Shown here: piece after piece, positions 2,629 through 10,765 of the stretch
Numbering within the stretch: position 1 is the first letter of the stretch
Layout: each line of letters starts with the position of its first letter
Origin: Candidatus Helarchaeota ASGARD archaeon Hel_GB_B
GTDB lineage: Archaea; Asgardarchaeota; Lokiarchaeia; Helarchaeales; HEL-GB-B
Assembly (NCBI GenBank): GCA_005191425.1
Contig: SUPR01000105.1
Location: 1 to 10,765 of the forward strand
DNA: 10,765 nt
Reading direction: 5' to 3'
The notes under the pieces: model-generated
Databases searched by the model: none
What the model was told of the DNA's origin: nothing
What the model saw: the letters and a program-made list of their open reading frames with translations, nothing else
Position numbers and translations under genes: made by a program

Positions 2629-3861
2629 TTAATCATCAATAACTGGTTTATCCATTATTTTTGCTATCCAAAATCTTTTTACTCTCAAATAACTTGCTAA
2701 ACTTTTGCCCATAATTGAAAGTAGAAGATTTTTAATGCGTTGATCCGTTCTATGTTTTATTTTTTCACCAATACCCATTTGTACTATTTCAATTAAATGG
2801 TAAATTGGTAATTTTGAAAGTGATACATTTTTAGCTAAAGTTAAATACCAATTACACCCTCCGCAGTAATCAACGATAAAATCAGCACCTTTTACATCTA
2901 ATTCTCTTAATCTTTTTCGAGCTGATTTAACAGAATATATTATACTATAATTTGAAGCTGCTGCACCAATTCCGCAGCACAATGCATTTTCTCTTGTATG
3001 CTTAGGTTCGACCACATCTATTTCAAATGCTTTTAAAATATTCCTTACTTTTTCAAAAAATATATTTCCAGATGCTTTAGGCCAACAATTATCATGAATT
3101 GCTACAGTTTTTTTCAAAGGTTGTGGTTCAATTTCACCCTTTTGAATTTGTTCCCATAGCCAATCAATAATTGAAACTACTTCAAAATTGAATTTAATAT
3201 TAAAAATATCATTATATACATATTTGAACATATGATATCCAGCAAGACAGACTGTAATCATTTTTCTAATTTTCATTTGATCAAATTGTTCCTTTAAATA
3301 TTCGCCAACAGTTTTTCCTGCATCTAAACACCCCATCCTATAAAGTGGTTCTCCACAACAGAGTTCTAAGGATCCAAAAATGGGGATATCTTTAAAAATC
3401 TTTGAGTCTAATAAAAATGGCTGTAAAAGTGAATTACATCCTGTATAAATCATAACATCTGAGTCAGGTGGATTTTTCCAGTTCATATTCCATATTTTTA
3501 TAAGATTTTTTTCGTCTTTAGGTATGTGTTTAATAGTGAGAGAATATAAATTTGGGAAATGATACGGCAGTGCTAGGCGTGCTCTTTCAGGAAGTCCCTT
3601 TTTTAGGTATCTTTCATTCCATTTAGATAAAATGAGCGAATGTGGATTACAATTATTCGGGCAATAATGATTACAAGCCATGCAACTTGTGCATTTATTT
3701 AATACATATTTAGATCTCCCTGATTTAACAAGCGACTTTATTTCATTTTGAGCCAATTCAATAGGCAATTTCAAAACTGGACATTTATGAAAACATAGCC
3801 CACAAAAATCACAAGCGTCCTCTTTAAATGTTAATGAAAATTGAAATTTCTGAAGTGTCAT
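2629..3861 (-). CDS. Heterodisulfide reductase D / GlcF-like Fe-S oxidoreductase (2x[4Fe-4S] plus two CCG domains)
   Basis: CDFCGLCFHKCP and CTSCMACNHYCP ferredoxin motifs; CCG domains YTGC...LCCGEP...VCLAG and HDNC...LCCGIG...YCGGC. Confidence 0.88.
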   Translation of the reverse strand: MTLQKFQFSLTFKEDACDFCGLCFHKCPVLKLPIELAQNEIKSLVKSGRSKYVLNKCTSCMACNHYCPNNCNPHSLILSKWNERYLKKGLPERARLALPYHFPNLYSLTIKHIPKDEKNLIKIWNMNWKNPPDSDVMIYTGCNSLLQPFLLDSKIFKDIPIFGSLELCCGEPLYRMGCLDAGKTVGEYLKEQFDQMKIRKMITVCLAGYHMFKYVYNDIFNIKFNFEVVSIIDWLWEQIQKGEIEPQPLKKTVAIHDNCWPKASGNIFFEKVRNILKAFEIDVVEPKHTRENALCCGIGAAASNYSIIYSVKSARKRLRELDVKGADFIVDYCGGCNWYLTLAKNVSLSKLPIYHLIEIVQMGIGEKIKHRTDQRIKNLLLSIMGKSLASYLRVKRFWIAKIMDKPVIDD

Positions 3862-3883
3862 TATATAATTTTTTGAAATTAGA

Positions 3884-3891
3884 TTTTTATA
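3884..3891 (-). promoter_or_regulatory. Putative TATA box of the HdrD-like gene (leaderless transcript)
   Basis: Minus-strand TATAAAAA 23-30 nt upstream of the ATG at 3861, with purine-rich sequence upstream and no SD. The AT-rich background limits significance. Confidence 0.4.
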
Positions 3892-3966
3892 TTTATCTAT
3901 TACACATATTTTTAATTTAATAAATGTTGCCCATTTTTCAATTGAATTGGACGCATCTGTTTGATA

Positions 3967-5079
3967 TTATAAATATTTACACTTATTCTTAAGACACTCA
4001 TTTCTATCACAAACATAGTAAATGCTTTTTGGATCATTAAGAAATTTACACCAGGTTTTTAAATCGAATTTATGTGGATTTTTGAAATAATAATTACAAT
4101 AGAAACATATTTTCCAAGGTTCTTTATTATTTTCTGTAGAGTTTAAATAAAATCTAAAAAATGTGGCTATCTCTTCTATTGTAAATCCTTTATTTTGTAA
4201 ATATTTTAAAATAATTACTCTTTTATAATGACTCTTTTTTTCCGACTTAATTAATTGTATTGCTTTTTTAATACAATATGGTGAATCTTCTAATATATCC
4301 TTAATTTTTTTCATAGAAATGATCCAATTTCCTGAAAGATTTTCTCCCACATTTGGTATATTTAAATCATAATTTGTTTTCCAATATCTGTTTTTAAAAC
4401 CTGGATTTCTTGATTTGATATTTGGACTTAAAAAATTAAAAAACTGGAATTCGGGGATCGAGAAATTTTCGATTTTTAAGTTTGATTTGACCGAATCATC
4501 CAATATTTTAGAAATATCCCACTTTTTAATAGGAATAGAAAAATACTCTTCATTTTTAATTTTCCAATATGGCGAATATACCCATCTTATTAGTTTAGGA
4601 TATTCTGTCATATCTAGGTCAACGCCAATTTTATAATCTATACTGTCATATTGATAATTGTGAAACAAATATTTTTTGGACTTCTTCCAGCCTGACTTTT
4701 GTGGAAATAGTTCCTCAAAAACCTTTTTAAATCGCATTGGGTTAATTTCATCGTTAATGTATTGCATAGCGTGAATTCCTACCCCTGAAATTTTCCAAAA
4801 GAAATTATAATCCTGGTTTTTCTCCTTCCAGTTTTCCCAAAATTCTAATATAATTTTTAAAGAAAGTTCTCTTGAAATATTTGCAGAAATAATTTCACTA
4901 TCAATAACAAAATAAGTATCTTTTCCAGTAGTAGTCCTGAAAAATGGACGTGTGAAATCAATCAATGAGAAATCATCAAACCATGATGTAATTTTTTCTC
5001 GTCCATCTACTAATGTTGCATTAGCAAATGCATCTGCTTTAATCATTGAATATTCATTTACTTTTCTAATTTGTTCCAT
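3967..5079 (-). CDS. AEP-superfamily primase/primase-polymerase catalytic domain fused to a PriL-like C-terminal (putative 4Fe-4S) domain
   Basis: Motif I YFVIDSE (D60, E62); motif II KISGVGIH (H103); motif III GVD (D154) followed by PKLIRWVYSPYWK. The C-terminus PYC(269)...SHYKRVIILKYLQNKGFTIEEIATFF...WC(344)...VC(357)...C(362)...C(367) matches the PriL/p58 C-terminal pattern. Confidence 0.8.
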   Translation of the reverse strand: MEQIRKVNEYSMIKADAFANATLVDGREKITSWFDDFSLIDFTRPFFRTTTGKDTYFVIDSEIISANISRELSLKIILEFWENWKEKNQDYNFFWKISGVGIHAMQYINDEINPMRFKKVFEELFPQKSGWKKSKKYLFHNYQYDSIDYKIGVDLDMTEYPKLIRWVYSPYWKIKNEEYFSIPIKKWDISKILDDSVKSNLKIENFSIPEFQFFNFLSPNIKSRNPGFKNRYWKTNYDLNIPNVGENLSGNWIISMKKIKDILEDSPYCIKKAIQLIKSEKKSHYKRVIILKYLQNKGFTIEEIATFFRFYLNSTENNKEPWKICFYCNYYFKNPHKFDLKTWCKFLNDPKSIYYVCDRNECLKNKCKYL

Positions 5080-5104
5080 TCAAATCAAATTTTATTTATC
5101 CAAT

Positions 5105-5112
5105 TATTTAAA
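5105..5112 (-). promoter_or_regulatory. Putative TATA box of the primase-like gene (leaderless transcript)
   Basis: Minus-strand TTTAAATA (archaeal consensus TTTAWATA) 26-33 nt upstream of the ATG at 5079; no SD in between. Confidence 0.5.
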
Positions 5113-5273
5113 AGAATCATATCAATTTCTTAACATAAATTTTTCTCAAATAGTCTAATCTTTAATTTAAATTAGAAATTTTAAAAATTGGATAAAATGA
5201 ATGATTGAACATTCAATTAAATAAAAAATTAAAGGTTAATTTGCCAGATTTTCAATTTACTAATCTAATTTTT

Positions 5274-6063
5274 TTATTTTCTATCTTTTAATAATTTTAA
5301 ATAATAAAATATAACATAATAACCCATAAAAAAGCCCGCTGACTCTACCAGTCCATTATAACCATACATTATCAATATATCTAAAAAGATATTTACTCTA
5401 GAATATGAAACTCCATTAAAATATTCAATATACCAGATACCGCCAACATGTAAAGGAATTATCATACATAATGAAATCAGGACTATTCCTAAATAATAAT
5501 ATAAGAGCCCAAATTTTATTTTTCTGGGGATCGATTTCCAAGGTAATATACCAATGACTGAAACAGAATACATAACAATCAAAACAATAATTCCACCTTC
5601 AGAAAAAATTTGTCTTCTTGTAATTTCAAGTTCAGCTGGATTTGTTAGGCGCATTCGGGTTATCATTAAATAACCAGATATTTCAAAAAAAAAGAATAGC
5701 TATAATCAGCAGAAAATATTTGAATGCAAATTTGTCTTTATAAATTATGCACCGCATAAATAATAACCCTGATAATCCGACCAATCCCCCTTCAAATAAG
5801 CCCATTATTATTGGAATGAATGGATACCCCACTGGAATTACCCCAAATAATAGTGTAGTTTCTACCATTCTGGTACCCATTCCTTGTGCAATTAGCTCAA
5901 CCGTTGAATGAAAAGCTGTCGTAAGAAGAAAAACCAATAAAGGAGCTTTATCCTTTTTCAATAGTGCAACAATTATGCAGCTGATACAAATTGCAGCTGC
6001 AAAAATCAATTCAAATGTATATAATAAGTCAGTCGTATACCGGGAAACAAAAAATGGCAACAT
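5274..6063 (-). pseudogene. Polytopic membrane protein (about 262 aa) split into ORFs 5683-6063 and 5274-5666 by a 1-nt frameshift in a homopolymer; could be a sequencing artefact or a slippage site
   Basis: Both ORFs are hydrophobic with multiple TM segments. Removing one T from the minus-strand T9 run (A9 at 5685-5693) gives continuous ...LLIIAILFF-EISGYL-MITRMRLTNP.... Confidence 0.7.
5685..5693 (+). repeat. A9 homopolymer at the frameshift junction
   Basis: tttc-aaaaaaaaa-gaatagc at 5681-5700; the last A of the minus-strand run forms part of the premature TGA (5683-5685). Confidence 0.85.
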
Positions 6064-10385: not shown

Positions 10386-10765
10386 TTAATCTAATGGAAT
10401 ATCTTTTAATATTTCCTTTAATTGATCTTTAGGAAGATTCTTTAATAATTCTTTTAATTGCTGGGGAGTCAGTCCTTTTAATTGCTGGGGAGTCAGTCCT
10501 TTTATTGCATCGACTGGAATATTTTTTACATCTTTTGGACTTAAAAGTTTCATTAATTCTTGCTTCCAATCTTCTACTTCCGTCATAATTACCACGTGTT
10601 TTTTTATTATTTCGGTTAAAAAAATCTCTTTTTTTTCTTTTTCTGAAGTATTATATATATACGATAATATAAATTTTTTTCGATTTTTTAATAAAAAAGG
10701 ATCATTTCCAGAAGTTTTTGAAATAGAATCGAAGATGTATTGGAGATTTATATCTCCTTTTTTAT
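10386..10765 (-). CDS. 3' part of a hypothetical protein (at least 125 aa, 5'-truncated by the window edge) with a C-terminal 8-residue repeat
   Basis: The frame of the listed 69-aa ORF stays open from 10595 to the window end (KKGDINLQYIFDSISKTSGNDPFLLKNRKKFILSYIYNTSEKEKKEIFLTEIIKKHVVIMTEVEDW...), so the GTG at 10595 is probably internal. Confidence 0.7.
   Translation of the reverse strand, partial: KKGDINLQYIFDSISKTSGNDPFLLKNRKKFILSYIYNTSEKEKKEIFLTEIIKKHVVIMTEVEDWKQELMKLLSPKDVKNIPVDAIKGLTPQQLKGLTPQQLKELLKNLPKDQLKEILKDIPLD
10451..10504 (+). repeat. Perfect in-frame tandem repeat, 24-nt unit x 2.25
   Basis: cttttaattgctggggagtcagtc at 10451-10474 and 10475-10498, then ctttta at 10499-10504; encodes KGLTPQQL twice on the minus strand. 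Confidence 0.95.

Follow-up and report, generated by a model that had tools for sequence, protein, structure and literature searches.

A compact AEP/PriL-like primase, probably captured from tailed viruses, beside canonical PriS and PriL in an Asgard archaeon

Contig SUPR01000105.1 of the Asgard archaeon Hel_GB_B (contig C8 of this analysis) was studied over its entire length of 10,765 bases, which is called the window here. The host genome comprises 3.54 Mb in 182 contigs, is 93.7% complete and has a GC content of 28%. At 3967-5079 (-) the window carries a complete open reading frame (ORF) which starts with ATG and codes for a single-chain, primase-like protein of 370 amino acids (plus stop), in the following called P0001. 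Its frame is open throughout, and its end point is shared by orthologs of 56-58% identity. Two domains can be delineated. Residues 1-219 (4423-5079) form an archaeo-eukaryotic primase (AEP) catalytic domain according to an AlphaFold2 model and to structural comparison by VIA-align and Foldseek, whereas residues 237-370 (3970-4371) form a helical domain with conserved cysteines that resembles the C-terminal domain (CTD) of PriL, as indicated by Pfam model PF04104, by hhalign and by fold matches. Between them lies a basic linker, residues 220-236 (4372-4422), which is flexible by prediction.

Motif I of the catalytic domain, D60-S61-E62 (4894-4902), is located in the model on the beta strand 55-63, and its acidic residues are putative metal ligands by analogy. 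Motif II reads S98-G-V-G-I-H103 (4771-4788, with H103 at 4773-4771), and motif III consists of D154 (4620-4618), followed by the presumed nucleotide-binding tail R165..Y168-S169..K173 (together 4561-4620). The C-terminal domain shows the PriL-like string P267-Y-C269 ... H284-Y-K-R287 ... L294 ... G298 ... E302-E-I ... F307-F308. Its cysteines are at residues 269, 325, 328, 344, 357, 362 and 367, of which C269 is encoded at 4273-4275, C328 at 4096-4098, C344 at 4048-4050, C362 at 3994-3996 and C367 at 3979-3981, all on the reverse strand. A preliminary description of this DNA had already listed all AEP motifs, the PriL-like string and a basic linker between the two domains; translation of the ORF confirms the motifs and the string, and the basic stretch is found around residues 220-236. 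Ahead of the gene there is an AT-rich spacer of 194 nt (5080-5273) with a TATA-like TTTTAAATAA at 5104-5113, 25-34 nt ahead of the ATG, which by reading of the sequence may serve as promoter.

The AlphaFold2 model was built on alignment A2, which consists of four short forms like P0001 and the N-termini of 25 long relatives described below (29 sequences). It reaches a mean predicted local distance difference test (pLDDT) value of 89, and residues 225-236 are the only segment below 50. An exhaustive comparison with 48,161 PDB chains by VIA-align aligned residues 1-219 to ten AEP structures with Z from 13.9 to 10.4, a root mean square deviation (rmsd) of 3.2-3.9 Å and 176-200 residues aligned. 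Highest were the non-homologous end joining (NHEJ) polymerase of Methanocella (5dmu; Z 13.9, rmsd 3.2 Å, 198 residues aligned) and Prim-PolC (6sa0; Z 13.8), followed by LigD polymerase domains (2fao, 2iru; Z 12.5), yeast and human Pri1 (8b9a, 8b9d; Z 11.3), the CRISPR-associated Prim-Pol (7nqd; Z 11.0), PriS of Sulfolobus (Sso; 1zt2; Z 10.9) and PriS of Pyrococcus (1v33; Z 10.4). In Foldseek against the PDB the top 34 rows are nearly all AEP enzymes, with a probability of 1.0, and the structural neighbours in AlphaFold DB include MCM-fused, PriX-labelled and conflict-system primases (the TOTE conflict system primase domain). The AEP fold that had been proposed from the motifs is thus borne out, with Z up to 13.9. 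Sequence comparison gave a different picture. PF01896, the PriS model, gives no match at E up to 0.1 with P0001 or with any member of the family (29 sequences), searches of PDB sequences with P0001 and with the family profile yielded no meaningful match, no Pfam AEP model matches any family member, and hhalign of the family profile against the PriS of the same genome gave a probability of 7% and no alignment. From the latter two results it follows that the catalytic domain represents a family which sequence models do not yet cover.

For the C-terminal domain, profile comparisons carry most of the argument. PF04104 matches residues 255-314 of P0001 with 16.9 bits (E 0.004), under its gathering threshold of 22.4 bits; it exceeds the threshold in the relative P0015 (26.4 bits) and, at E up to 0.1, finds 12 of the 29 family members. 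In a search of the own genome, residues 264-317 of P0001 match the genome's PriL (E 3e-4, 35% identity). When the A2 family profile was compared with this PriL by hhalign, a probability of 89.7% and E 1.8e-6 were obtained over 81 columns, and in this alignment the PPC of the family falls on the PPC of PriL and C344 on its second cysteine. Furthermore, the spacing C269-x74-C344-x12/17-C in P0001 resembles that of the genome's PriL (PPC ... YNC ... GIC ... WC). Fold matches, computed for residues 232-370, were found with the Fe-S (6-4) photolyase PhrB (4dja; Z 7.1), with other photolyases and cryptochromes (various PDB entries; Z 5.8-6.9), with the Fe-S domain of yeast PriL, i.e. its CTD (6di2; Z 6.5), the CTD of human PRIM2 (8d0k_E; Z 5.3), the helix-bundle domain of pRN1 (6gt7; Z 4.9) and PriX (5of3_C; Z 4.7). 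PriL-CTD and photolyases are structurally akin, and these matches agree with that kinship. Because helical domains can reach such fold scores by chance, it is chiefly the profile comparisons that establish the homology to PriL. Taken together, the weak PF04104 match, the PF04104 matches in relatives, the profile comparison and the fold matches support the PriL/p58C-like domain of the preliminary description, and we conclude that it is homologous to PriL-CTD. Its conserved cysteines are likely to hold a 4Fe-4S cluster.

Conservation within alignment A2 follows the motifs. D154, W33, R48, G52, N313 and N318 are invariant in all 29 sequences, and at least 90% conserved are D60, T55, F57, R70, G101, R165, Y168, S169, P183, C269, R287, L294, F310 and C344. 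Judged from this alignment, in which motifs I-III are kept as the motif reading demands, the AEP motifs and the core of the PriL-like string belong to the family as a whole and go beyond chance. Two details given earlier have to be modified. DxE in motif I had been taken as a mark of PrimPol-type enzymes; it is indeed present, but while the short forms and the long form P0006 have Glu at position 62, most other long forms have Asp. DxE is therefore, as far as the alignment goes, no signature of the family and does not on its own mark P0001 as PrimPol-type. Motif II SGxGxH is conserved, yet about half of the long viral forms have Tyr in place of its His (SGKGxY). As to the cysteines, all those listed before are there, but C325, and with it the CxxC at 325-328, and C357 vary even among the four short orthologs, in which 269, 328, 344, 362 and 367 are invariant. 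C357 is kept in the long forms and absent from three of four short forms. The linker peptide PGFKNRYWKT is invariant in the short forms only.

A single chain combining both primase parts could in principle be the replicative primase of its host, comparable to the ordinary PriS-PriL fusions of Nanoarchaeum and other DPANN archaea, and the two-domain logic of P0001 is the same as that of NEQ395 (PMC10250227). Contig C124 of the own genome decides against this. There, priL (399 aa, with the four cysteine motifs cited above) and the adjacent priS (364 aa, showing DIDCD, SGNRGYH and an RFPNSLHGK tail) are both intact. Since canonical priL and priS thus sit elsewhere in the genome, P0001 is not the replicative primase and not the only primase but an extra enzyme, as had been supposed. 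In addition, neither a genome of the same genus nor 398 further genomes of the phylum contain its gene, and no Pfam PriS model matches it. With priL and priS on C124 and the gene absent from other genomes, the replicative fusion is refuted and practically nothing is left of its probability. The own genome contains a third AEP-like gene, G000:C56:11201-14011 (-) (locus L027), coding for a protein of 936 aa with unusual architecture: a weakly PriS-like N-terminus and a Gins51_C-like piece come first, and after them TGT_C2/PUA, a strong PAPS-reductase domain and a 4Fe-4S dicluster domain.

When 1.84 billion representative proteins were searched exhaustively with HMMER, only 31 relatives of P0001 were obtained. 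Beyond one fragment of the same clade, nearly all of these are 1100-1320 residues long and match P0001 over their first 390-470 residues. A word-indexed search found three orthologs at the identity given above, one of them from an assembly named Candidatus Lokiarchaeota archaeon. Entries of the family in the databases are few and unnamed or called 'hypothetical protein'. The distant matches P0029, P0031, P0033 and P0034 cover only parts of the protein and were not used as tree root. Other searches remained negative within their range: 185,579 species genomes scanned with the short-form alignment, a method that detects close relatives only, gave no further relative, and nothing was found by tblastn against 50,697 phage records, in single-protein scans of IMG/VR with P0012 and P0001, or for P0001 in PHROGs. 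In the ESM Atlas, the proteins that a language model places close to P0001 come from tailed viruses, have 320-390 residues and are labelled PriCT_1, PF04104 or PF01896.

The usual form of the family is the long one. In 25 long relatives the AEP and PriL-CTD-like domains are followed by a superfamily 2 (SF2) helicase of XPD/DinG type. Alignment A3, which covers the last 700-850 residues of the long forms, contains a Walker A-like KTTRAGVTT, the Walker B DE(I)S, a QxxGR motif and, within the first helicase domain, four conserved cysteines; its profile weakly matches archaeal XPD. An AlphaFold2 model of the helicase half of one long form (pLDDT 82.6) has XPD, DinG and CasDinG as top Foldseek matches (3crv, E 1.4e-15). 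With the helicase half as query no match was found in the own genome. For the fusion of AEP, PriL-CTD-like and XPD parts we found no description in the literature, and papers on Asgard viruses mention AEP primases and PrimPol in general terms only.

Long-form genes were located, among others, at L011:10001-13534, L012:10001-13807, L009:2465-5803 and in L013 (G336:C161:19898-23431). Their contigs reach 65-87 kb, with runs of small co-directional ORFs around the gene, and the neighbours include a family B DNA polymerase (PolB), terminase large subunit, AAA_24, dUTPase, and Dam and other methylases. By this gene neighbourhood signature the long forms are to be regarded as proteins of tailed viruses. 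A virus-like contig of this kind, 39 kb long (G336:C161), has been binned with a different genome from the same phylum. On the same contig (L025/L026), an ORF of 907 aa (11442-14165) takes the position of the terminase large subunit in the matching locus L011, and one of 1662 aa (23412-28400) that of PolB; their counterparts on a related JGI contig have 507 and 905 aa, so that inteins or fusions are possible.

The short form has a narrow distribution. When 400 genomes of the phylum were searched with a profile, only the window's own genome yielded it, and the same-genus genome G126, which is 93% complete, lacks the gene. DNA of P0001 was also found in metagenome runs from hydrothermal vents. 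In a maximum-likelihood tree the short forms appear as one clade (SH-aLRT 99) on a long stem. The capture of the 370-aa form from a virus with a primase-helicase of 1100-1300 aa is the most likely course of events suggested by these sequences. We infer the direction from virus to cell as the simpler and more parsimonious one because there are many deep viral lineages and just one shallow cellular clade, and because DxE is common to the short forms and the long form P0006.

Such a capture might have left nothing but debris, and P0001 could be read as a decaying relic of a viral primase-helicase, cut before the helicase and now devoid of function. Its C-terminus coincides exactly with the start of the helicase in the long forms, its distribution is sporadic and a neighbouring membrane gene looks split. 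Decay would be hard to reconcile, however, with the fact that all four orthologs have kept an intact frame, a common C-terminus and every catalytic and cysteine motif, and that they form a coherent clade despite the long stem. Nei-Gojobori estimates of the ratio of nonsynonymous to synonymous substitutions (dN/dS) are 0.08-0.16, i.e. around 0.1, with dS saturated, and as far as these comparisons allow to judge, the short forms are under purifying selection. A relic is thus very improbable.

The surroundings of the gene were compared with G126. Homologs of the other window genes, namely asd, a cyclophilin-like gene, a membrane gene, a RadA paralog and ORFs of 440 and 387 aa, are present there with 69-77% nucleotide identity, scattered over different contigs. 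Two window genes are missing in G126, the P0001 gene and the adjacent CCG/4Fe-4S gene at 2629-3861 (-). The latter is HdrD/GlpC-like; of its family G126 has more than 20 paralogs, none of them closer than 29% identity. The composition of the contig is that of the genome, with a tetranucleotide correlation of 0.997, above the median of all contigs, and 27% GC versus 28%; the contig belongs to the host genome. The three ortholog loci have no neighbour in common with the window. A 'damage-tolerance module' of P0001 and the RadA paralog was considered as well and rejected as a conserved unit, since the ortholog loci share no neighbours and G126 has the RadA paralog without the P0001 gene.

These data bear on the possibility that the gene still serves a mobile or satellite replicon (a small integrated element, a plasmid or a virus satellite) rather than the host. 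The preliminary description had placed it outside any visible mobile element. This is true of the contig, where no integrase, tRNA or flanking repeats were seen around the gene, where neither PHROGs nor PADLOC matched the neighbours and where repeat, tRNA and Rfam scans revealed nothing that would mark the border of an element; but the relatives beyond its own clade are virus-like modules and the gene is sporadic. A replicon of this kind would go together with the viral relatives, the occurrence in one of 400 genomes, the absence of both the gene and its CCG/Fer4 neighbour from the genome of the same genus, the lack of shared neighbours at the ortholog loci and a contig of just 10.7 kb which ends in a dispersed repeat. 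On the other hand, besides the missing element hallmarks, genes that the same-genus genome also has, asd among them, lie on either side, the composition is indistinguishable from that of the genome, and the variable segment (2629-5270) spans about 2.6 kb only, with a redox protein as its other gene. We consider a mobile replicon unlikely.

A role in conflict, in which a virus-derived protein would be reused for blocking the replication module of related viruses or for making primers or nucleotide signals, functions of the latter sort having been proposed for AEP domains in conflict systems, appears less probable still. Sporadic occurrence, viral relatives and the TOTE and CRISPR-associated primases among the structural neighbours could be quoted in its favour, but the fold matches reflect the general AEP fold, and no defence genes are nearby. 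The only PADLOC match is a weak one of 18 bits to JetD on the helical domain, which was judged spurious, and comparison of the own genome with six virus-like loci gave no spacer-like matches or other link to related viruses.

Some further features of the window may be mentioned. Positions 1-107, at the contig end, belong to a dispersed repeat of about 85-100 nt that looks like a miniature inverted-repeat transposable element; a further 27 copies occur in the own genome (15 at 93-100% identity, the remainder at 70-91%, a few of them partial), and about 26 are found in the same-genus genome. It probably explains why the assembly breaks there. Two adjacent membrane ORFs in different frames, 5274-5666 and 5683-6063 (-), correspond to a single ORF of 301 aa in G126 (L018:1462-2367), so that either the gene is split or frameshifted or the assembly is in error. 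At 10451-10498 an exact tandem duplication of 24 nt within the truncated ORF at the contig end leads to a repeated LKGLTPQQ peptide.

Weighing these results, we regard P0001 as probably a compact, self-contained AEP/PriL-like primase, a helicase-less offshoot of viral enzymes which has been kept as an accessory in a narrow lineage of Lokiarchaeota type. Its task there would be accessory priming or repriming, unless it serves an element not yet seen. If it is catalytically active, D60, E62 and D154 of the AEP domain would bind two catalytic metal ions by analogy with PriS/PriL, NEQ395, PolpTN2 and ORF904 of pRN1, and the incoming nucleotide would be held by the SGxGxH loop (S98-H103) together with the tail of R165, S169 and K173. 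The PriL-like domain may swing on the flexible basic linker and keep the template and the 5' nucleotide of initiation in place, which would allow the first phosphodiester bond, and with it the first dinucleotide, to be made. The XPD-type helicase of the viral parent is expected to travel 5'-3' on the lagging-strand template and to hand single-stranded DNA to the primase, a coupling that may follow the same logic as in DnaB-DnaG or gp4 of T7. In the cell, P0001 has no helicase and would need some other access to single-stranded DNA, stalled forks being one example. This would be compatible with an accessory repriming role but does not argue for it.

Several points weigh against the preferred interpretation. 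A primase without helicase or known partner has no obvious route to its template. The tree is unrooted, and the short clade is placed in an unresolved basal polytomy with several deep lineages of long forms. The AlphaFold2 model rests on 29 sequences only, and Z values of 5-7, as obtained for the C-terminal domain, are in a range attainable by chance for helical domains. C269 and C344 align with cysteines of PriL, but ligands 3 and 4 of the predicted cluster are ambiguous among C328, C357, C362 and C367. Finally, no RNA run is listed among the sequencing runs that contain P0001 DNA.

A more specific version holds that the lineage domesticated the primase module from a primase/XPD-helicase protein of a tailed virus as a stand-alone cellular repriming enzyme beside PriSL. 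This is possible, and we would give it perhaps a minor share of the probability. If true, it would constitute an Asgard parallel to eukaryotic PrimPol, i.e. an accessory AEP with viral primases as nearest kin, and the viral parent would be an undescribed replicative primase-helicase that uses a 5'-3' Fe-S helicase of XPD/DinG type and has two Fe-S domains per chain. Already as it stands, a replication enzyme seems to have moved from tailed viruses into an Asgard chromosome that held a full canonical primase. With 370 aa and two domains, P0001 is a tractable object for studying the contribution of a tethered PriL-like domain to initiation. The viral fusion of AEP, PriL-CTD and XPD/DinG, which is probably undescribed, would be a new way to couple priming with 5'-3' unwinding on the lagging strand, and this parent family is the more novel object than P0001 itself.

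Among the closest known systems is NEQ395, the monomeric replicative primase of Nanoarchaeum equitans, with its related DPANN fusions (PMC10250227). Both are single chains of similar small size in which an AEP catalytic domain precedes a PriL-derived Fe-S domain (predicted in case of P0001). NEQ395, however, has no other AEP beside it in its genome and goes back to canonical PriS and PriL, whereas P0001 coexists with PriS/PriL, has no Pfam PriS match and has viral relatives. PolpTN2 of the Thermococcus plasmid pTN2 likewise is a highly diverged fusion of PriS-like and PriL-like parts; it is carried by a mobile element and has four cysteines and the brown colour of an Fe-S protein (PMC3973330), and a PolpTN2-like family has been described (PMC5862659). 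Yet PolpTN2 has 923 aa with PriCT-1, both the N-terminal and the C-terminal domain of PriL and a winged helix, and lacks the His of motif II, while P0001 has the CTD-like part only and keeps the His. This separation is based on the described architectures; 370 aa are too short for a layout of about 900 aa. With the PriS-PriL heterodimer (1zt2, 1v33, 8b9a, 6di2) P0001 shares the catalytic fold (Z 10.4-11.3), motifs I-III, and a PriL-CTD-like domain in which the PPC cysteine and downstream cysteines occur, but it is one chain, has neither the N-terminal domain of PriL nor the zinc-knuckle or C-terminal domain of PriS, and shows DxE instead of DxD.

ORF904 of pRN1 (3m1m, 6gt7, 9aam) and the PriCT-bearing primases of mobile genetic elements are similar in that an AEP domain with DxE is tethered to a helical helper domain. 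In ORF904 this helper is needed for initiation, and like ORF904 the parent proteins of the P0001 family are fused to a helicase. The differences are that the pRN1 helper has no Fe-S cluster and its helicase is of superfamily 3, as opposed to a PriL-CTD-like helper with cysteines and an SF2 parent helicase of XPD/DinG type; the fold scores of P0001 against ORF904 are also lower (Z 7.3-7.7 and 4.9). NHEJ polymerases and Prim-PolC (LigD PolDom; 5dmu, 6sa0, 2fao) provide the best matches to the catalytic domain (Z 12.5-13.9), but they are repair polymerases without a PriL-like domain and share about 10-15% of residues with P0001, which is likeness of fold, not of family. In human PrimPol (7jk1) the AEP domain alone matched (Z 7.3), the C-terminal domain of P0001 matching PriL-CTD-like folds instead. 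PriCT domains of mobile-element AEP-PriCT proteins are related to PriL-CTD (PMC5862659). Summarizing, the single-chain AEP and PriL-like architecture is already known from the DPANN fusions, PolpTN2, a protein of the Bacillus prophage phBC6A51 and the AEP-PriCT proteins. New here are the family and its setting, a stand-alone accessory primase of apparently viral origin in an Asgard-type archaeon with a full PriSL, and P0001 is a new, sequence-divergent and probably virus-captured member of the known single-chain AEP/PriL-like primases.

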